From: Escherichia phage ElsieAttenhofer_Bas105 | DNA: 39,718 bases | Sequence record: PQ850601.1 | Strand: one strand, 5' to 3' | In this document: piece after piece, positions 3,368 to 39,625 of the stretch | Position numbering within the stretch: the first letter of the stretch is position 1 | Layout of the letters: every line of letters starts with the position of its first letter | Notes under the pieces: model-generated | The model's input: only the letters and a program-made list of their open reading frames with translations | The model's database searches: none | Told to the model about the DNA's origin: nothing | Position numbers and translations under genes: made by a program

Positions 3368-3461
3368 CTGAATGAATAATTATAGGTGAAAGCTGCATGA
3401 ATACGCGGTTAGTAACCTATAGTTACTACCAGTCTAACCTACTGTTTTACAAGGAGTTTTG

Positions 3462-9827: not shown

Positions 9828-9845
9828 ACTATCACTATAGGATTA
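9823..9845 (+). promoter_or_regulatory. Phage RNAP promoter (phi1.1-like)
   Basis: CTAAACTATCACTATAGGATT; predicted +1 at 9840. Confidence 0.7.
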
Positions 9846-9896
9846 GACTCAAGGTCATGACTCAAAGTCGTGGCCTTCATGATTAACCCTAACTCA
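9843..9896 (+). promoter_or_regulatory. RNase III-type processing stem-loop (R1.1-like), copy 2
   Basis: Stem AGGTCATGAC (9852-9861) / GTCGTGGCCT (9867-9876), loop TCAAA, two G-U pairs; conserved flanks as in copy 1. Confidence 0.5.
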
Positions 9897-16781: not shown

Positions 16782-16825
16782 ACTCAAGGTCATTCATTTC
16801 GAGTGGCCTTTATGATTAGACTATA
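16779..16825 (+). promoter_or_regulatory. RNase III-type processing stem-loop, copy 3
   Basis: Stem AAGGTCATTC (16786-16795) / GAGTGGCCTT (16801-16810), loop ATTTC; conserved flank TAGACTCAAGG. Confidence 0.5.
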
Positions 16826-30698: not shown

Positions 30699-32981
30699 AT
30701 GGCTAGTAATATTGAATCAGCTCTGGCTAATCGGACTATGGGTCGTGGCAGAGCGCCGGGTAAAACTATCGCTGTCAACTATCAAGCAGCCAACGTACAG
30801 GCTCCTACTGGCGACTCTGGGCTGGCTCGTGCGCTAACTAACTTCGTTGAGTCTGGTACTGGATTGTACAAGCAGTTCAAGGACGAGGAGAAGACCAGAG
30901 CTGACGAGCGGTCTAACGAGATTATCCGTAAGATGACACCTCAGCAAAGACGTGAGGCTATCCAGAACGGCACACTGCTGTATCAGGACGACCCTTACGC
31001 TATGGAAGCACTTCGAGTCAAGACGGGCCGTAACGCTGCCTTTGCGGTGGATGACGAGATTAACGTTAAGATTCAGAACGGTGAGTTCCGTACACGTCAG
31101 GACATGGAAGAGTATCGCCACCAGCGACTTCAGGACGCCGCTAAGTCCTATGCTGAAGAGGCGGGAATTAACCCTACCGATGAGTTCTTCCAGCGCGGGT
31201 TCAACGATAACATCACAGACCGCAACATCGCTATCTATGGGTCTTTCAATAAGTATTTCAGCAAGCAGTCTGAAGAGACAGCAATGTTGAACACCCGTAT
31301 TGAGATGAACTCATTCCTGAACGATGGCGACCTGATGCGTTCACCTGAGTCTGGCAAGACCTTCATGGCCTACCTTCGTGATGGACTAACTACTGCTGCT
31401 ATCCCCTCGGACCAGCGAGCACGAGAGGTCATCACCCAGACGGTCCGTGACGCAATCCAGAAGTCAGGAGGCTCAAACTTCCTACAGCAAGTACGAGGCG
31501 AGCGAATCACCCTTAACGGTGTGGATGCTACAGTCGAAGAGATTGTAGGACCTGATGTCTTCAACGCTGCTATTGTTGAGGCACAAGGGACTGAGTACAA
31601 GCTGGTGGCTAAGTATCAGGAAGACTTAGCGTTAGGCGTTCAGTCTGCGATTCTTCAGGATGACCCAACCATTGGTCTTGCCCAGATTCAGAAACTCAAG
31701 GAGCAGAACAACCTACTTCAGCCGGGTGAAGAACTCACGCCTCAGCGTCAGATGCTTATTAACGCCGAAGCCAGCTTACTGGAAGCGGTCAAGCGTAAGT
31801 CTGCTGAACAGGCGAAGGAGAACACTAAGTTAATCCAGACCCAGAACAAGCAACTGGTCATCGACCAAGTGTATCAGCGACGTCTGGCTGGGGACAACGT
31901 GTCCACCAACTATGAGGACCTTCCGGTCTCAGATGCTACAGGCGAGTTCAAACGTTCGGACATGAACAACTATGCGGCTGCCAAGCTACAGCAGATTGAC
32001 CAGATGGACACCCCTGAGGCTGCTAAAGACGCTCAGAAGGTGGCATTGTTAAGAGCTGACACTAACAACGGTCCGTTCCGTAATGCCTTCCAGACGCTGA
32101 CTCAGGACGCTGCTGGTGAGTGGCAAGCTGCGGTCATCCGTGGACAGTACGACCCAGACAAGATGCAACGCTTCGAATCTCTTCGTCGTGCCTACACTCA
32201 GGACCCTTCAAGTTTTGCTGCGCTGTATCCGGACCAAGCTCAGTTGTTCTCTACGTTCGACCAGATGGACAAGATGGGTCTGGACCCTCAGACGATGATT
32301 GAAGCTGATAAGCAAGCTGCAAGTCAAAGCCGTGAGATGCGCATGGAGTCAGACAAGGCATGGCAGGAGTTGAAGAACGACTCCAAGAACACCCAGTTGT
32401 CTCGCCTCCCAACGTCTCTGGACTCAAGTGCTCGTAAGGTCTGGGACTCATGGTACTATCGTACAGGTAACGCTGACGCTGCAACGCAGCAGACTCAACG
32501 CTGGCTGAATGAGAACACCGTAACGTTCCGGTCTGAAGGTTCTGACGGTAAGTCAATAGGTATGGTGTCCAAGCACCAGCTTATGGTCGGGGATAACCCA
32601 GAGTCGTGGCAGGTGGGTCGAGACATTATCGACACCGCTCGTCAGCAGCTCATTAAGGCCAACCCTTGGGTAGTGAACTCTCAGTTGTCCGTTGTTGAAC
32701 AGAACGGCTCTATCTTCCTCCAAGACGCTACAGGGACTATTCGTATTCGATACGATAAAGAACTTGTAGGTAAACTCTACCGCGAACAACAGCAGAAGGC
32801 ACAAGATGCCGCATATGCTCAGGCAGAACGTGACGCTAACAAGCGAGCGCGTATCGTCGGGACTAAAACTGCTGGTGACAAACGTCGAGCTGACCGAGAG
32901 GCCAACATCGAGAAGCGTGGTGGGATGTACAATGACGTCTCACTGGAGGGTATCGCAAAAGTACTAATTGGTAAGGAGTAA
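30699..32981 (+). CDS. Internal virion protein C (T7 gene 15 homolog)
   Basis: 760 aa; ADERSNEIIRKMTPQQRREAIQNGTLLYQDDPYAMEALRVKTGRNAAFAVDD nearly identical to remembered T7 gp15. Confidence 0.93.
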   Translation: MASNIESALANRTMGRGRAPGKTIAVNYQAANVQAPTGDSGLARALTNFVESGTGLYKQFKDEEKTRADERSNEIIRKMTPQQRREAIQNGTLLYQDDPYAMEALRVKTGRNAAFAVDDEINVKIQNGEFRTRQDMEEYRHQRLQDAAKSYAEEAGINPTDEFFQRGFNDNITDRNIAIYGSFNKYFSKQSEETAMLNTRIEMNSFLNDGDLMRSPESGKTFMAYLRDGLTTAAIPSDQRAREVITQTVRDAIQKSGGSNFLQQVRGERITLNGVDATVEEIVGPDVFNAAIVEAQGTEYKLVAKYQEDLALGVQSAILQDDPTIGLAQIQKLKEQNNLLQPGEELTPQRQMLINAEASLLEAVKRKSAEQAKENTKLIQTQNKQLVIDQVYQRRLAGDNVSTNYEDLPVSDATGEFKRSDMNNYAAAKLQQIDQMDTPEAAKDAQKVALLRADTNNGPFRNAFQTLTQDAAGEWQAAVIRGQYDPDKMQRFESLRRAYTQDPSSFAALYPDQAQLFSTFDQMDKMGLDPQTMIEADKQAASQSREMRMESDKAWQELKNDSKNTQLSRLPTSLDSSARKVWDSWYYRTGNADAATQQTQRWLNENTVTFRSEGSDGKSIGMVSKHQLMVGDNPESWQVGRDIIDTARQQLIKANPWVVNSQLSVVEQNGSIFLQDATGTIRIRYDKELVGKLYREQQQKAQDAAYAQAERDANKRARIVGTKTAGDKRRADREANIEKRGGMYNDVSLEGIAKVLIGKE

Positions 32982-32985
32982 CATA

Positions 32986-35900
32986 ATGGCGACTCGTGGT
33001 ATTCGCAATAACAATCCGGGGAACATCCGGGTAAGTAAGGACCAATGGGAAGGAATGACTGGAGATGATGGCGCATTCGTCACCTTCGATAGTCCAGAGT
33101 CTGGCGTCCGAGCTTTAGGTAAAAACCTGCTGTCCTACGGTCGCCAAGGTTATGACTCCATCGAGAAGATTATCAACCGATGGGCCCCTCCTAACGAGAA
33201 CGACACTCAGGCTTATATTGACTCAGTGGTGGCTGCGACTGGTATCCCAGCTACCCAGAGTCTAGACCTCTCGAACCCGGACACACTGTCTTCTCTGGCG
33301 CAAGCTATCAGCTTCCATGAGACAGGCTCCCGGTACGACCCTGAAGTCTATCAGCAGGGAGTCGCAAGAGCACTCAACGGTATCAGCCCAAAGACTCCAC
33401 CAGTAAGCGCTAACGTATTTGACGCACTCACGGAAGGACTCAAGTCTAAACCTAAAGTAGCTCTGGGTGAGAAACTTCCGACCGCTGCTGGTCTGAACAT
33501 TGAGGGTCAAGCACCTGAAGCTCCCAACGAATCGTTCGGTGAGATGTTCTATAAGGCTACTGGAGAGACCATGCAGGAACGAGAGGACCGCTCTACGTGG
33601 TTCGGTTTCGGTGCGGCTACAGAAGCTGAAGTGAAGAACTCTATGGTCGGCGTGGCTATACGGGCTGGTCAGACTGAGGACTCACTGGATGTCATTGGCG
33701 ATGTGTTCAACCCAACCAGATGGAACAACCATAAGTGGACTCGTGAAGAGCTTGACCAGATTCGTAACGCTGGGGTTCTGCCTCAGTATTACGGAGTAAT
33801 TACTGGCGGTTCTCCTCAGAATCTGACAGAGCTGATAAACTTGGCGCTGGAGAACCAGAAGTTGGACCAAGAGAAGGCCAAGGCTGGGACTGGCGCTCAA
33901 CTGGCGGCTGGCGTGATTGGTGCTGGCGTGGACCCTCTGACCTACGTTCCTATTGCTGGGCAGGTAGGCAAAGGTGGGAAGCTAATCAACAAGATGTTCA
34001 CTGTGGCTGCTCAGTCTGGCGCTCTGGCTGGTGTGTCTGAGGTGGCCCGTACCTCAGTGGCTGGTGGTGATGCTCATGTGGCTGAAGCTATCCTTGGTGG
34101 TGCTCTCTTCGGTGGTGGCATGACCGCTATCGGGGACGTTATCGGCAAGGCCCTAGGCAAGTCAACCAATGAGTTCGCTGGGCCAGCAACACGTCTGGAA
34201 GCTCGTGAGACTGCACGTAATGTTGACGGTCAGGATCTGTCTCGTCTACCTATTCAGGAAGGTGAGCAGACCTTTAGTCATCAAGGTGTTAAGTTCGCAG
34301 ACGTTCCGAACGAGCCGGGTAGTGTACGACTGGAAGATGGTTCAATCCTGATTGGTGAGAACCCTCTGAACCCTAAGACACGTCAAGTCTTTGACGAAGT
34401 GATTGAGCCGGAACGTGCCGCTGCTGGTGTGAACCTTGGTGGACTTACCGAGATTGGTCTAAAGCTCCTGAGGTCTGAGAACCCTGAGATTCGAGGACTT
34501 GCAGCTGACTTGGTGCGCTCACCCACAGGTATGCAATCTGGTTCGAGCGGTAAGATTGGGACCACCTCGTCAGACGTATTCGAGCGACTTCGTGCAGTTG
34601 ACCATAGGTTCTACAACGACATTGACGATGCTGTGACTCAGGCACTGAAGGACCCATACTTCCAGACAAACTTCAACCGTGACAATAAGTCGTTCCGTCA
34701 GGACATCTACCAGCGCGTAGCTCTGGCGATTGAAGATGGAAGTGGGAACCTGAAGGCTGAGCTGACTCCGGGTGAGCTGAAGGTCTATGACCTGCTGAAG
34801 AACCAGTTCGACGCTAAGCGTGAGATGATGGAGAACCCTGCGATGTTCGGTCGAGCTGACGCTCAGTCTATCTTCCCCGGTAGCCGCTTCAAGGGAACCT
34901 ACGTTCCTCACGTTTACAGCAACCAGATGAAGCAACTGTTCATCAATGAGCTGGGAAGCCCTGAGGCTCTACAGGAGGCCATCAAGAAGTCGTGGCTAGC
35001 GAGCTATGCGTCACGACCTGAGGTTAAGGCGCGAGTGGATGCAATGTTAGCTGAGCAGCTTCAGGCTACACAGAAGGCAGCAGGTAAGACTTCAGGTCAA
35101 ACTACCAGTCAACGAGCTTCGGTTAGTGAGGCAAGTTACCAGATGAAACTGGATGATGCAGCTACTCGTGCGGCTGATAATGTTGCGGAACTGAACGATG
35201 TACTGACTAACGCTGAGAAGCGTGTGGCAGACCATGAGAAGAAGCTTCAAAACTCCAAGGATAGACTTGCGTCCCATGAGGCCAAACTTAAGGAGCTTGA
35301 GGAGCAACTGGAAGCTAAGCCTAATAGCAAGACCCTTCCTGTTAAGATTGAGAGCCGGAAGCGGATGATTGAGACACAGCAGTCTCATGTCCGTGTGAAT
35401 ACCGAGCGTCTCGACTACGCGAATGCCCAAGCTGCTAAGGTTCGAGACCGAATTGCCAAGGCTACTAGTGAGTACGAAGCAGTCGCAGCCGCAGCTAAAG
35501 GTACCAAACCAGTGGTTGATAACGATACAGCTCCAACTGGAGAGGCGACTTCCGGTGCAGAACCGAATGTAGCCCCTGAGGTAACGATGGCTATGGTTGA
35601 GAAGTACGCCAACGATAAAGCTTATGGTATATCACACTCTGACGTCTTTGAGCGCTCATCCGTAATGGAGGAAAACATCAATGGTCTCGTAGGCTTGGAG
35701 AACAATAACTTCCTTGAGGCTCGTAACCTGTTTGACAGCGATATGGAAATCGTGTTGCCTAACGGTCAGCCGTTCAGTGTTAACAGCCTCCGTGAGTGGG
35801 ATATGGACAAGATTATCCCAGCATATAACCGTCGAGTAAATGGTGATATTGCTATCATGGCTGGTACAGGTAAGACCACGAAGGAAGTGAAGGATGCCGT

Positions 35901-37374
35901 AGAGACCCTGATGAACCGCGCTGGTGATGACGGTAAGTTGAAGGATGAGGTGTCGACTCTGCGTGACACCCTTAAGATTCTGACTGGTCGCGCTCGACGT
36001 GATGGTGCTGACGATGCTGCGTTCGCTACCGTGATGCGTACCATGACTGACCTGTCCTTCTTCGCTAAGAATGCCTACATGGGTGTTCAGAACTTGACGG
36101 AGATTGGCGGTATGCTGGCCCGTGGTAACGTCCGTGCGATGTTGCATGGCATTCCAATATTCCATGACCTAGCCTTCCGTAACAAGAAGATGGGAGCCTC
36201 GGAGATTAAGGACCTGCACAATGTTATCTTCGGTAAGGAACTGGATGACTCAATCCGTCCGTCAAAACAGGATGTCATAGACCGCCTACGAGCTTACAGC
36301 GCCCTGAGCAAACCTACAGCTACGGCTTTAGGATCTGCCAAGTATTACACTGGTGAACTTGCAGTACGCTCTCCGTTCACTAAAGTCCTCAACGGTACGA
36401 CCAACTACCTGTTAGATGCTGGACGTCAAGGCTTCCTGTCTGACATCGTGGAGCATAGCCTGACTGGTAGTAAGCGTAAGTTCGATGACCGCTGGCTGAA
36501 GACCGCTGGTATCTCTGACGAGCAGTGGAAAGGCATTAAGTCCATAATCCGTGAGTCAGTGACTCGTGGTCCAGACGGGAAGTATACCATCAAGGATAAG
36601 AAGGCGTTCAGTCAGGACCCAAGGGCTATGGACCTGTGGCGTATGGGTGACACCATCGCTGACGAAACGTTACTCCGGCCTCATAAGCTGTCAAACATGG
36701 ACGCCAAGGCTTATGGCCCTCTCGCTAAGACTGTCCTTCAGTTTAAGAACTTCGTCATCAAGTCCATCAATGGGCGAACCATGCGAACCTTCTATAACGC
36801 CACGAAGAACAACCGAGCGATTGACGCTGCCCTGTCCACTGTGATGTCTATGGGTCTTGCTGGTATCTACTACATGGCTCAGGCGCACGTCAAGGCTTAC
36901 GCTATGCAGGATGGTCGAGACCGTGACTACCTCAAGCAAGCTCTGGACCCGACGATGATTGGATATGCTGCTCTATCACGTAGTTCACATCTTGGTGGAC
37001 CACTTGGGGTAGCTAACATTCTGGGTGGTATCGCTGGGTACGAGGACACTAAGATGCTCCGTTCGTCTATCCTCCCGCGTTCACCTACAGAGAAGCCTGA
37101 ACGGGCCATCGCGTATGGTGCAGCTACAAGTGACCCTGTGATGAATGTTGTTGGTAACTTCTTGGAGCAGGTTCCAGCTTTCGGATATGCTGCTAACGTT
37201 GGCGCTTCGGCTTACAACTTGGCTGGCTACCTCAAGGCTGATACTCGTGTCAACGAGCGTGACTACATGACCGGGATGTATAATACGTTCCGTGAACTGG
37301 TTCCGAACGACCCCATTACCCAGAAGCTGTTGCTTGGAACGTTTGAGGAGCAAGGCATCCACATCAAGGACTAA
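32986..37374 (+). CDS. Internal virion protein D (T7 gene 16 homolog) with non-canonical N-terminal domain and a coiled-coil insertion
   Basis: Start placed at ATG 32986 (AAGGAG RBS; the track ORF begins upstream at 32968 inside gene 15); central and C-terminal regions colinear with remembered T7 gp16 (SRPEVKARVD, VEKYANDKAYGISHSD, FLEARNLFDSD, YNRRVNGDIAIM, NGTTNYLLDA); N-terminal 140 aa lack the SLT motif; about 150 extra residues near nt 35090-35580. Confidence 0.92.
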   Translation: MATRGIRNNNPGNIRVSKDQWEGMTGDDGAFVTFDSPESGVRALGKNLLSYGRQGYDSIEKIINRWAPPNENDTQAYIDSVVAATGIPATQSLDLSNPDTLSSLAQAISFHETGSRYDPEVYQQGVARALNGISPKTPPVSANVFDALTEGLKSKPKVALGEKLPTAAGLNIEGQAPEAPNESFGEMFYKATGETMQEREDRSTWFGFGAATEAEVKNSMVGVAIRAGQTEDSLDVIGDVFNPTRWNNHKWTREELDQIRNAGVLPQYYGVITGGSPQNLTELINLALENQKLDQEKAKAGTGAQLAAGVIGAGVDPLTYVPIAGQVGKGGKLINKMFTVAAQSGALAGVSEVARTSVAGGDAHVAEAILGGALFGGGMTAIGDVIGKALGKSTNEFAGPATRLEARETARNVDGQDLSRLPIQEGEQTFSHQGVKFADVPNEPGSVRLEDGSILIGENPLNPKTRQVFDEVIEPERAAAGVNLGGLTEIGLKLLRSENPEIRGLAADLVRSPTGMQSGSSGKIGTTSSDVFERLRAVDHRFYNDIDDAVTQALKDPYFQTNFNRDNKSFRQDIYQRVALAIEDGSGNLKAELTPGELKVYDLLKNQFDAKREMMENPAMFGRADAQSIFPGSRFKGTYVPHVYSNQMKQLFINELGSPEALQEAIKKSWLASYASRPEVKARVDAMLAEQLQATQKAAGKTSGQTTSQRASVSEASYQMKLDDAATRAADNVAELNDVLTNAEKRVADHEKKLQNSKDRLASHEAKLKELEEQLEAKPNSKTLPVKIESRKRMIETQQSHVRVNTERLDYANAQAAKVRDRIAKATSEYEAVAAAAKGTKPVVDNDTAPTGEATSGAEPNVAPEVTMAMVEKYANDKAYGISHSDVFERSSVMEENINGLVGLENNNFLEARNLFDSDMEIVLPNGQPFSVNSLREWDMDKIIPAYNRRVNGDIAIMAGTGKTTKEVKDAVETLMNRAGDDGKLKDEVSTLRDTLKILTGRARRDGADDAAFATVMRTMTDLSFFAKNAYMGVQNLTEIGGMLARGNVRAMLHGIPIFHDLAFRNKKMGASEIKDLHNVIFGKELDDSIRPSKQDVIDRLRAYSALSKPTATALGSAKYYTGELAVRSPFTKVLNGTTNYLLDAGRQGFLSDIVEHSLTGSKRKFDDRWLKTAGISDEQWKGIKSIIRESVTRGPDGKYTIKDKKAFSQDPRAMDLWRMGDTIADETLLRPHKLSNMDAKAYGPLAKTVLQFKNFVIKSINGRTMRTFYNATKNNRAIDAALSTVMSMGLAGIYYMAQAHVKAYAMQDGRDRDYLKQALDPTMIGYAALSRSSHLGGPLGVANILGGIAGYEDTKMLRSSILPRSPTEKPERAIAYGAATSDPVMNVVGNFLEQVPAFGYAANVGASAYNLAGYLKADTRVNERDYMTGMYNTFRELVPNDPITQKLLLGTFEEQGIHIKD

Positions 37375-37392
37375 ACTATCACTATAGGAAAC
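37370..37392 (+). promoter_or_regulatory. Phage RNAP promoter (phi17-like)
   Basis: ACTAAACTATCACTATAGGAAAC; +1 at 37387. Confidence 0.75.
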
Positions 37393-37438: not shown

Positions 37439-39625
37439 ATGTCCACGATTACACAATTCCCTTCAGGAAACACTCAGTACAGGATTGAGTTCGACTACCT
37501 AGCCAGAACGTTTGTTGTTGTTACGCTGGTGAATAGCTCTAACCCTACCCTGAACCGTGTAATGGAAGTTGGTCGAGATTACCGATTCCTTAATCCAACG
37601 ATGATTGAGATGTTGGTTGACCAATCAGGTTTCGACATCGTTCGTATTCACCGTCAGACTGGAACTGACTTAGTGGTAGACTTCAGGAATGGCTCAGTGT
37701 TGACAGCTAGTGACCTGACCAATGCAGAGCTTCAGGCTATCCATATTGCAGAAGAAGGTCGAGACCAAACTGTTGACTTAGCGAAGGAATATGCAGATGC
37801 TGCTGGTAGCTCTGCCGGCAACGCTAAGGATAGCGAGGACGAAGCAAGACGAATCGCTGCGAGTATCAAGGCAGCTGGTCTATTTGGATATATTACCCGT
37901 CGCTCCTTCGAGACAGGCTTCAACGTTACAGCATGGAACGAGGCCCTGCTATGGGAAGAGGATGGTGATTATTACCGCTGGGATGGTACGCTTCCAAAGA
38001 ACGTTCCTGCTGGTTCAACTCCTGAAACGTCTGGTGGCATTGGGTTAGGGGCGTGGGTCAGTGTTGGTGATGCTTCATTGAGAAGTGATTTGGCCCTAAC
38101 CACAGGCGCAGGTCGAGTTGGTACAACATCCGGCAGGACCGTACAGGCAGAGTTTGATATCCTCAAAATGGGATACAAGACGCCTGATGACTTTGGCGCA
38201 AAAGGAGATGGAAGCACAGACGACACCAATGCCATATTAGATGCCTGTTCGTGGGCCTCAACCAACGGACTGCCACTTAGAATTCCATGCAAAACATATG
38301 TTTGGAATGGCGACACTATACCATACGATAATGTGGCCATTATTGGCGATAAGCGGCCCTATGCAGATTCATGGCTAACACGTCTTCTTGATGGCAGCAT
38401 TATCGTCGGTACGCTCAGATTTAGTGGCAAAAACGTACAAATCAGCAATATTGGAGTCGATCACGGTTCGTTCCGGTTCCCATCTATAGCTGGTGATGCT
38501 CTCACCGTCTCAGCTCCTGAAAAATCAGGGCAGTATTGCGTTATAAGAAACTGCATTGGGCTGGGACGAAATCCAACCGATGCATTTCACTCTATTCTGG
38601 TGGAGGGTTATAAATATTCAATTATTGAAGATTGCATAGGCATACAGAATACATATAGCCTCGCGCACAAAAGTGGTTATTCAATCACGAATAATATAAT
38701 ATCCAGAAACTCAAACACAGGTGTTATTGTTAAATCTGATAGTGCATTTGGTGATGCCAGTTTCTCTAATATTACCAATATTACCATTGATGGAAATGAA
38801 AACTGCAATATTGGCTTGTGGGTTTTTGCGCAAGACGCTCAACTACAGAAGGTTAATGTATCGAATATTGTAACGTCTGGATGTAAATACGACATGGTGG
38901 TGCAGTCTGATACTGGCGTCATCAATGAAATTAACATTAACAATCTGGCAAGCTCTGGAGCGTCCATAGCGTCACTAGCACTGGTGGCTAATGCAGCCGA
39001 TAAAATATACACCGTAAACATATCAAATGTTTCAGCTGGCGAAGTTACTGGGCAAATTATTGATGCACAGGCGGCTAATTTGCTAAACATATCTAATGTG
39101 AACGGGCGAATTACTAGTGAATCTACCCACGTTAATGACTCTATAAAGATAGGACCATTAGTCAATGTTTCAAATCTTGTTAATATCACACCAACTTTGA
39201 ACTATGACCTTGTCTCTCAGGCTGGAGTGACTTTTAACAACGCTTTTGACAAGAACAGCATCAGTAATGTTCGCGCTGCGATATATGGAAGCGGCGCGCC
39301 GCGACCCGGGTATGCAACACAGGATGCAAGCGGTGATTCTGGAGTGCTTTCGGTAAGATACAGCCAGACAAACTCGTCATTCCTAAAGCTAACGCTTCCG
39401 TCAGGAGCAGCTGAGATAGCTACCATAAACACAACAGCCATCAATGGTTCGGTAATACCTGAAGGGTATGTTTTATGGATACAAAACGCCACCGCCGGGC
39501 AAAACCTAACGATAACGCCTTCTACTGCTGGTCATATCGTTACAACCGGGAATACTGCAAAGGTGTTAGCTGGCGGTGATAAGGTTGGGTTTATGTTTGA
39601 TGGGAGCACCTGGATTCAGATGTGA
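37439..39625 (+). CDS. Tail fiber / tailspike: T7 gp17-like N-terminal adaptor fused to a pectate-lyase-fold (beta-helix) depolymerase-like domain
   Basis: 728 aa; N-terminal 150 aa align with remembered T7 gp17 (YLARTFVVVTLV, DYRF, VDFRNGSVLTASDLTNAELQAIHIAEEGRD); central region carries the hallmark DFGAKGDGSTDDTNAI and repetitive N/S/T/V-rich beta-helix rungs. Confidence 0.9.
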   Translation: MSTITQFPSGNTQYRIEFDYLARTFVVVTLVNSSNPTLNRVMEVGRDYRFLNPTMIEMLVDQSGFDIVRIHRQTGTDLVVDFRNGSVLTASDLTNAELQAIHIAEEGRDQTVDLAKEYADAAGSSAGNAKDSEDEARRIAASIKAAGLFGYITRRSFETGFNVTAWNEALLWEEDGDYYRWDGTLPKNVPAGSTPETSGGIGLGAWVSVGDASLRSDLALTTGAGRVGTTSGRTVQAEFDILKMGYKTPDDFGAKGDGSTDDTNAILDACSWASTNGLPLRIPCKTYVWNGDTIPYDNVAIIGDKRPYADSWLTRLLDGSIIVGTLRFSGKNVQISNIGVDHGSFRFPSIAGDALTVSAPEKSGQYCVIRNCIGLGRNPTDAFHSILVEGYKYSIIEDCIGIQNTYSLAHKSGYSITNNIISRNSNTGVIVKSDSAFGDASFSNITNITIDGNENCNIGLWVFAQDAQLQKVNVSNIVTSGCKYDMVVQSDTGVINEININNLASSGASIASLALVANAADKIYTVNISNVSAGEVTGQIIDAQAANLLNISNVNGRITSESTHVNDSIKIGPLVNVSNLVNITPTLNYDLVSQAGVTFNNAFDKNSISNVRAAIYGSGAPRPGYATQDASGDSGVLSVRYSQTNSSFLKLTLPSGAAEIATINTTAINGSVIPEGYVLWIQNATAGQNLTITPSTAGHIVTTGNTAKVLAGGDKVGFMFDGSTWIQM

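Follow-up and report, generated by a model that had tools for sequence, protein, structure and literature searches.

A putative Enc34-type hydrolase domain and an optional, predicted coiled-coil cassette in the gp16 ejection protein of a K1F-like Escherichia phage

In phage T7, the ejected internal virion protein gp16 starts with a transglycosylase domain (residues 1 to 156) and continues into a "molecular tape" (residues 157 to 228) that glues the gp15 tunnel (PMC8954989). These first 228 residues are all that gp16 contributes to the periplasmic tunnel. They are followed by a first membrane region (residues 243 to 410), by gp16-C (residues 411 to 1118), which binds DNA and was fitted into a cytoplasmic toroid seen by tomography, and by a second membrane region (residues 1119 to 1290) (PMC8954989). 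Three substitutions in gp16, G737D, I754T, and E761K, abolish the arrest of genome entry (clamp mutations cited in PMC8954989). A second described system that bears on this work is the endolysin of phage Enc34, whose domain (family PHA02564) is muralytic on permeabilized Escherichia coli, Pseudomonas, and Hafnia cells, with Glu131 as the catalytic residue and Trp79 and Tyr95 as important ones (PMC8943055). From its structural relatives GH73 and GH23, this family was argued to be a GH73-like N-acetylglucosaminidase, not a lytic transglycosylase (PMC8943055). Here, we analyzed the gp16 gene (internal virion protein D, an ejectosome component) of Escherichia phage ElsieAttenhofer_Bas105 in a 39,718-nucleotide stretch of DNA (record PQ850601.1), which is referred to as the window and in which all positions are given. 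The gene occupies positions 32986 to 37374 of the + strand and encodes 1,462 amino acids plus the stop codon.

Compared to T7 gp16, this protein differs in two places. Its N-terminus is a predicted Enc34-type peptidoglycan hydrolase domain that stands in the place of the T7 SLT domain, and its gp16-C part contains 167 additional residues that are predicted to form a coiled-coil hairpin. We read these as two independent module changes, the hairpin being an exchanged cassette, with wall cutting and partner binding as the inferred roles; to this statement as a whole we assign a probability of roughly 55%, its functional part being weaker than the identifications.

The product was identified as gp16 because of its gene position and its matches to phrog_342 (E = 0) and to T7 gp16 chains. 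The gene follows those for gp13 (PF11090, Phage_T7_Gp13), gp14 (PF24072, T7_gp14), and a 760-amino-acid gp15 and precedes the tailspike gene, which is the T7-type order. A phmmer search against the PDB matched 7EYB and 6YT5 at E = 0, and 7K5C and 9VVP were matched too. Outside the N-terminus and the insert (residues 131 to 690 and 866 to 1462), the protein is 53 to 55% identical to T7 gp16; the alignment set consisted of the gp16 proteins of the window, K1F (1,295 amino acids), T7 (1,318 amino acids), and ST31 (1,462 amino acids). A homologue that is about 94% identical and lacks the insert was modeled in the core of phage E1004 (9VVP), which indirectly suggests that the window gp16 is also packaged in the capsid core and ejected.

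The Enc34-type domain (PHA02564) spans residues 1 to ~131 (positions 32986 to 33378, + strand), and several observations distinguish it from the T7 domain. First, the T7 N-terminus carries the motif WTESRF with E37, to which residues 1 to ~131 of the window protein gave no meaningful alignment. Second, the Pfam SLT model (PF01464) found no match in residues 1 to 160 of the window protein, nor in Kayfunavirus EcpYZU01, compared to scores of 108 bits for T7 residues 1 to 160 and 106 bits for phage NC-A as positive controls; the signature of GH23/SLT lytic transglycosylases (E-S motif, PF01464) is absent from the window gp16. Third, the boundary of the swap coincides with the transglycosylase/tape boundary of T7, homology resuming at GISPK (residues 132 to 136), the counterpart of GITPK in T7 (residues 159 to 163). 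Finally, when residues 1 to 160 were searched against the PDB with phmmer, the Enc34 endolysin's catalytic domain (7Q47) was recovered with an E value of 1.6e-14 (residues 3 to 122, ~32% identity), along with the K1F-type gp16 of phage E1004 (9VVP). An AlphaFold model of the domain, built on an alignment of homologues (pLDDT 89, pTM 0.80), has the all-helical fold that resembles the alpha lobe of lysozyme. Foldseek placed 7q47 at the top for this model (E = 2e-9, TM 0.76/0.72), with 9VVP next and no other significant match. We read these data as a non-orthologous replacement of the SLT domain by an Enc34-type domain, with the rest of the gp16 machine left intact.

The residues important in Enc34 have counterparts in the HMMER alignment of the window domain to 7Q47. 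E112 (codon at 33319 to 33321), the predicted catalytic glutamate, corresponds to Glu131, Y77 (33214 to 33216) to Tyr95, and W66 (33181 to 33183) to Trp79, all on the + strand. This pattern bears on whether the domain is an enzyme at all. It may instead be enzymatically dead and act only in peptidoglycan binding or as a structural "wing" of the tunnel; the transglycosylase activity of T7 is dispensable in most conditions (PMC8954989, citing Moak and Molineux), and the searched literature reports no activity for any K1F-type gp16. However, E112 and Y77, the catalytic Glu and Tyr, do not vary in an alignment of 60 sequences (the window and 59 homologues), an aromatic residue is kept at the W66 position (W in the window, Y in Kc166A), and the domain is 96 to 100% conserved across K1F-like phages, which makes a dead domain very unlikely. 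We consider instead that the ejected domain would make a local opening in the cell wall for passage of the gp15/gp16 tunnel, the same job as in T7. Its chemistry would probably be hydrolytic and glucosaminidase-like, directed at the other glycosidic bond, and would not form 1,6-anhydro-muramic acid.

These results bear out most of what the initial annotation had said about this end of the protein. The lack of a T7-type TESRF/SLT motif was confirmed, the comparison with peptidoglycan hydrolases led to 7Q47 by sequence as well as by fold, and the suggestion of a different peptidoglycan activity gained support from the Enc34 homology, the predicted fold, and the conserved catalytic residues. The description of the N-terminus as noncanonical holds relative to T7 but not among K1F-like phages, where the Enc34-type domain is the norm: over residues 1 to 135, 214 records reach an identity of at least 80%. 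The swap is not new as a sequence fact because it is genus-wide, K1F itself included; it was known from K1F and its relatives, and the Enc34 domain family was already characterized in 2022. More broadly, the PHA02564 domain was found in 745 phage records, as the N-terminus of K1F-like gp16, in tape-measure or "structural" proteins, and as free endolysins in Chi-like, 9g-like, and PM2 phages. No paper on the Kayfunavirus gp16 N-terminus or on a gp16 insertion was found in the searchable literature. Many Kayfunavirus gp16 records are labeled "peptidoglycan lytic exotransglycosylase" or "transglycosylase", and the SLT domain is absent from them. The former label was apparently transferred from T7 to K1F-like gp16 and is probably wrong in chemistry.

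The second change, the 167-residue insert (residues 691 to 857, positions 35056 to 35556, + strand), is referred to as cassette A; it is present in ST31 and absent from K1F and T7. On its left, the anchor SRPEVKARVD (residues 676 to 685, 35011 to 35040, + strand) has 9 of 10 residues invariant in the window, ST31, K1F, and T7 and varies slightly elsewhere (PETKARVD in vB_Yep_9, RID in phage A7). On its right lies the anchor VEKYANDKAYGISHSD (residues 871 to 886, 35596 to 35643, + strand). The initial annotation had estimated about 150 extra residues between these blocks and had called them heptad rich and charged. Both points stood: the alignment gives 167 residues, and the insert contains 31% charged residues compared to 24% in the rest of gp16. 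A heptad scan, which was crude, home-made, and based on an arbitrary threshold, marked three regions in the whole of gp16, two of them in the insert (residues 716 to 756 and 799 to 846) and the third at residues 1010 to 1040.

An AlphaFold model of residues 676 to 875, computed from the single sequence, predicts a helix-loop-helix structure in agreement with the heptad regions. The conserved left flank is helical (residues 678 to 699). The N-terminal linker (residues 691 to 706, 35056 to 35103), predicted to be flexible, forms a break between helices with a pLDDT of ~55; it is rich in Q, T, S, G, A, and K and differs between phages. Helix 1 (residues 707 to 777, 35104 to 35316), with a pLDDT above 90 from about residue 716, contains the first heptad region, and helix 2 (residues 784 to 838, 35335 to 35499), with a pLDDT above 90, contains most of the second. 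Between them lies the predicted tip loop KPNSKT (residues 778 to 783, 35317 to 35334). The tip motif AKPxSKT(L/I)P was kept in all nine versions of the insert that were compared (9/9), including a metagenomic one with only 46% identity. The C-terminal linker, also predicted to be flexible (residues 839 to 866, 35500 to 35585; pLDDT below 50), belongs to about 35 residues that have no predicted structure; it is variable, is rich in P, T, G, and D, and runs beyond the insert proper into a short variable stretch that K1F shares. All of these elements are on the + strand. The insert is therefore predicted to be an antiparallel coiled-coil hairpin on two flexible linkers, with an estimated length of about 8 to 10 nm from 55 to 70 residues per arm. 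In a structural comparison, 116 columns of the model could be superimposed on 1ujw_B, the R-domain hairpin of colicin E3, with an rmsd of 2.5 Å (TM 0.85, target normalized). Such matches are of shape only because the identity is 12 to 16% and the E values are above 0.03.

The insert could be placed within the ejection machine by comparison with T7. Residue 864 of the window protein aligns with T7 residue 720, and the insertion site corresponds to about T7 residues 708 to 716. Since this site is within gp16-C, the insert lies in the part of the protein that is modeled as cytoplasmic, beside the proposed DNA clamp. The T7 clamp positions G737, I754, and E761 correspond to G881, I898, and E905 of the window protein and are invariant in the four aligned gp16 proteins; G881 is only 24 residues past the insert. 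This location is relevant to a longer trans-envelope channel, which had been suggested at the outset. In such a scheme, the insert lengthens or alters the conduit, for instance for a wider periplasm or a capsule. A hairpin of 8 to 10 nm is on the order of periplasmic distances, and the post-ejection structure of gp16-C is unsolved and its topology unproven. However, the insert is outside gp16-N (residues 1 to 228), the sole part of gp16 seen in the periplasmic tunnel, and belongs to gp16-C, the DNA-binding part that is flanked by the two putative membrane regions and was assigned to the cytoplasm. Because its linkers are predicted to be disordered, it resembles an appended arm and not an extension of the tube wall. 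In addition, the tube protein gp15 is 760 amino acids long, as in K1F, and the hosts of the carriers, E. coli K-12, Klebsiella, Yersinia, Shigella, and Kosakonia, share no envelope feature. A role in the conduit is thus the least probable of the explanations considered here.

The insert is not a common property of gp16 homologues, a point that the initial annotation had left to a comparison across phages. With tblastn, it was detected in 19 phage records (~15 distinct phages), compared to 1,283 records with the C-terminal part of gp16. Carriers include the Kayfunaviruses ST31, ZH4, PH1061, CY1, and Kc166A and, elsewhere, a Przondovirus (Klebsiella phage), the Berlinviruses A7 (Shigella) and PZJ0206 (Enterobacter), and the Teseptimaviruses NC-A and vB_Yep_9. 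The non-Kayfunavirus carriers have an ordinary SLT N-terminus. The N-terminal swap and the insert are therefore independent, since the insert occurs with both SLT and Enc34-type N-termini.

Several features of the insert sequences are consistent with exchange between phages. The insert core (residues 712 to 835) is 77 to 94% identical between phages whose gp16 backbones are 50 to 65% identical, and the pair of window and ST31 shows the reverse, with 95% identity in the backbone and 80% in the core. In DNA, the gp16 genes of the window and ST31 are 95 to 99% identical at both ends and 65 to 84% identical over codons ~500 to 1000. For the central 1.5 kb of the gene, the best insert-bearing record is Kc166A, at 80%, and insert-less relatives reach ~88% over the flanks. 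The window allele is distinct among isolates, with a protein identity of at most 81% (Kc166A) and of 73% to ST31. The dN/dS ratio of the insert was 0.08 to 0.13 for well-diverged pairs. The dS was 0.1 to 0.5 between genera and 1.2 to 1.4 between the window allele and all carriers except Kc166A (0.81). This pattern fits a laterally exchanged module, present in at least four genera and under purifying selection, and suggests that homologous recombination in the conserved gp16 flanks mediated the exchange. Directly between gp15 and the insert-bearing gp16 of one carrier, the Klebsiella phage vB_VIPKPNMC04, is a gene for an HNH homing endonuclease (L005:65-472); it could promote gene conversion of the adjoining gp16 segment.

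More distant versions of the insert were also found. A metagenome contig (JACCDR010358458.1) encodes a T7-like gp16 of 1,459 amino acids with an SLT N-terminus (L018:499-4878). Its coiled-coil cassette is shorter and 46% identical, occupies the same site, and retains the tip as AAKPDSKTLP. Because this version shares the site and the tip motif, the module predates the recent exchanges. When full-length gp16 was used as a query in a large protein collection, 23 further clusters of K1F-type gp16 with 1,461 to 1,465 amino acids were recovered; the uncultured P0123 (1,461 amino acids) is 95% identical overall and has nearly the same insert allele as the window. Queries with the insert only returned a single 176-amino-acid fragment from a set of 5.8 billion proteins and, from a set of 1.84 billion representatives, the 176-amino-acid fragment and one weak coiled-coil match. 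These results say nothing about rarity because the full-length query found 23 clusters that had been missed before. Short coiled-coil queries can miss full-length proteins in large collections, and their negatives should not be taken to mean absence. With that limit, no protein family other than gp16 was detected with the insert module in the 5.8-billion and 1.84-billion protein sets, and scans of IMG/VR recovered only the already known isolates. A search for a source of the insert gave no match in the remainder of the window, among 5,426 E. coli genomes compared as DNA, or in plasmids. Helix 1 and helix 2 did not arise from one another by duplication. In the searched literature the insert is undescribed, though it is present in a few deposited genomes.

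Among the matches listed, the same site also carries other cassettes. A good example is the gp16 of Shigella phage A7 (L006:444-5375; 1,644 amino acids), in which the coiled coil is followed by a further ~190 residues. This second cassette passes the Pfam model Acetyltransf_1 (GNAT) with 23.4 bits, compared to a cutoff of 20.7 (E = 7e-5), and the motif ENFLR is repeated at both cassette junctions. About 14 further phage records contain the GNAT-like cassette, and in three of three that were checked, EcpYZU01 (L019:483-4937), pO103 (L020:429-4937), and PP74 (L021:423-4928), it stands alone at the coiled-coil site. EcpYZU01 is a Kayfunavirus with an Enc34-type N-terminus, and pO103 and PP74 are Berlinviruses. 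Hybrids were seen as well: in vB_Yep_9, the coiled-coil core lies between flanks of the GNAT cassette, and in the gp16 of the uncultured K1F-type P0146 (1,334 amino acids), linker remnants of both cassettes are left with neither core. In this scar, the GNAT cassette's left flank, EYLKEKHKDVFAKAEAEA, runs into the coiled coil's right linker, KGKKTSVDGHATTTAGETTSGNASQAAPEV, which suggests loss of a cassette by recombination. The gp16 loop is thus known in at least five states, since it was seen empty, with the coiled coil, with the GNAT-like cassette, with both, and as a scar. A hotspot with alternative cassettes in gp16 appears not to have been noted before. The protein gp13 was reported with an acetyltransferase-like fold (PMC4819975). 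A relationship of the GNAT-like cassette to gp13 was rejected, as BLASTP shows no similarity between them. GNAT enzymes generally use acetyl-CoA, which is a cytoplasmic metabolite. If the cassette uses acetyl-CoA, it would work only in the cytoplasm because it needs this metabolite, and its presence at the insertion site would fit the cytoplasmic placement.

It might be argued that the loop is simply permissive and that the insert is a tolerated passenger without function, spread by recombination and perhaps with the help of homing endonucleases. This would agree with the sporadic distribution, with the linker-only scar in P0146, with the HNH gene directly upstream of gp16 in vB_VIPKPNMC04, and with the failure of protein and DNA searches to find a homologue of known function. 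However, the dN/dS of ~0.1 was obtained with synonymous sites near saturation, and even at 46% identity, conservation extends to the tip loop and to many surface positions. Pfam and NCBIfam detected no intein blocks and no Hint or endonuclease domain in the insert, its predicted structure is all helical, and it includes no endonuclease open reading frame (ORF), no phage promoter of the CTAAACTATCACTATAGG type, no sigma-70-like promoter, and no terminator-like site. Furthermore, the size of T7-like genomes is tightly constrained. A functionless passenger is therefore quite unlikely. A 112-amino-acid antisense ORF (35092 to 35430, − strand) lies wholly inside the insert. It was judged to be an artefact of codon composition and was rejected as a gene because all genes are on the + strand; coiled-coil coding sequence often leaves antisense frames open.

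If the insert is functional, it may act before or after ejection. One view is that it acts inside the capsid, where four copies would bundle or project into the DNA and thereby stabilize the core or organize the packaged genome. The gp16 tetramer sits atop the pre-ejection core stack (PMC8954989). Coiled-coil hairpins often self-associate, the insert adds ~73 kDa per tetramer by our own arithmetic, all of which the capsid must accommodate, and the conservation of the core heptads fits a structural function. Against this, ~98% of the gp16-bearing phage records build a core without the insert, the alternative cassette at the same site is enzyme-like (GNAT) and not structural, and the flexible linkers speak against rigid integration. 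We regard a capsid role as unlikely, though less so than that of a passenger.

The reading that we prefer is that the hairpin is an optional accessory arm on the cytoplasmic side of gp16, next to the DNA-clamping region. We infer that this arm most likely binds a partner, which may be a host protein, a phage protein, or DNA, as the genome enters, and that binding would occur through the conserved distal half and the tip. Such binding would modulate genome entry or counter a host response, and the coiled-coil cassette would be one of several optional cargo modules at this site of gp16. A bolder version, which we hold only tentatively and think rather doubtful, is that the loop at about T7 residues 708 to 716 is a dedicated cargo-display site whose optional effectors are preloaded in the virion and delivered ahead of the genome. 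The modules might then counter host defenses or tune DNA entry before phage gene expression, and the coiled-coil cassette would be a new orphan virion-delivered effector with a conserved tip that binds a specific host target.

Several points weigh against the preferred reading as a whole. First, the hairpin has no known partner or activity, and the insert is not essential for ejection because most relatives lack it. Second, the fold matches of the insert are all to generic coiled coils, none with an E value of 0.001 or less, and the hairpin model rests on one sequence. Third, comparison of the insert with Pfam, NCBIfam, and PADLOC gave only the weak matches to SMC, Rad50, and LmuB arms that are usual for coiled coils; the PADLOC matches, to the coiled-coil arms of LmuB and JetC, scored 13 to 15 bits and do not identify the insert as a defense or anti-defense protein. 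Fourth, conservation in the predicted hairpin covers core as well as surface heptad positions, and a purely structural constraint would remain compatible with it. Fifth, gp16-C is placed in the cytoplasm by a composite model, the post-ejection structure at high resolution being that of gp16-N only (PMC8954989). Finally, the bond cut by Enc34-type domains was inferred from structure and not measured (PMC8943055).

The two changes matter for different reasons. In the N-terminal swap, an ejected protein exchanged one cell-wall enzyme for another precisely where two domains meet, which makes it a clean case of such a replacement. The insert marks a recombination hotspot in the cytoplasm-facing part of gp16, in which accessory modules turn over across genera and yet remain under selection. 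Should the modules prove to be delivered effectors, they would count among the earliest phage functions in the cell and would bear on host range, anti-defense, and engineering. Since the loop tolerates natural insertions of at least 350 residues, it is an obvious place for fusing cargo to a T7-like phage. In addition, with the insert located 24 residues ahead of the T7 clamp positions, natural variants make the control of genome entry by gp16 testable.

The rest of the window has the layout of a T7-like genome, with every gene on the + strand and an RNA polymerase of 893 amino acids. Its first 25 kb are 92 to 95% identical in DNA to Kayfunavirus (K1F-like) phages over 88 to 93% of the sequence, and the phage is regarded as a new member of Kayfunavirus because the phage collection has no closer record. 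The gp16 gene is contained in an ORF from 32968 to 37374, and we place its start at the ATG at 32986, in agreement with the K1F and ST31 annotations. This ATG is favored because a Shine-Dalgarno sequence, AAGGAG (32973 to 32978, + strand), can be read directly 7 nucleotides upstream, 4 nucleotides past the gp15 stop codon. The TTG at 32968, which a mechanical ORF call would use, was rejected, as the Shine-Dalgarno sequence fits the ATG at 32986.

A phage-promoter-like motif, CTAAACTATCACTATAGG(G/A)A, recurs about twelve times along the window, starting approximately at 3458, 6271, 9824, 11526, 12393, 14779, 16755, 21202, 24020, 25026, 29589, and 37366. No copy lies inside gp16 proper; the last one (37366 to 37390) overlaps the final gp16 codons and may be compared with the T7 promoter phi17 after gene 16. 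A 52-nucleotide direct repeat (TTAGACTCAAGGTCAT...GTGGCCTT.ATG.TTAAC.CTAACT) occurs at 459 to 510 and 9843 to 9894, the two copies being 85% identical, and its core recurs a third time at 16802 to 16818. At least the second copy begins just past a phage promoter, and the repeat could be a processing or replication-related site. The tailspike (37439 to 39625, + strand, 728 amino acids) is a mosaic. Its residues 1 to ~300 resemble the N-terminal part of T7-like tail fibers, with 75 to 77% identity to Vec13 and Klebsiella phages, and its residues 88 to 728 are 84% identical to the tail fiber of an unrelated 58.5-kb Escherichia phage, KarinMuster_Bas82. The receptor-binding module has apparently been exchanged across phage families.

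When compared to the described systems, the window gp16 is closest in architecture to the gp16 proteins of ST31, ZH4, PH1061, CY1, and Kc166A (1,462 to 1,464 amino acids) and of P0123, all of which combine the Enc34-type N-terminus with cassette A. The K1F gp16 and the E1004 protein Gp29 (9VVP), of 1,295 amino acids, share the Enc34-type N-terminus (98.5% identical in K1F) and a backbone that is 94% identical but lack the 167-residue insert. T7 gp16 (7EYB, 7K5C, and 6YT5) is alike in gene position, in the tape, in both putative membrane regions, in the clamp residues, and in the C-terminus; it differs in having an SLT domain with E37, where the window has an unrelated sequence family, and in lacking the 167 residues. 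With the Enc34 endolysin ORF39 (7Q47), the window domain shares homology, the predicted fold, and the catalytic Glu, Tyr, and Trp. However, the endolysin is a stand-alone lysis enzyme that carries a membrane anchor at its C-terminus and works from within when infection ends, whereas the window domain is fused to the N-terminus of a virion protein that is ejected and would work from outside as infection begins. The receptor-binding hairpins of colicins E3 and E9, the arms of SMC proteins, and YscO share the predicted shape of the insert, with no sequence relationship and no implied function. Finally, the GNAT-like cassette of EcpYZU01, pO103, PP74, and A7 resembles the insert in its site in gp16-C, in its sporadic spread across genera, and in its similar linker flanks but is an unrelated, globular, enzyme-like domain without a coiled coil.

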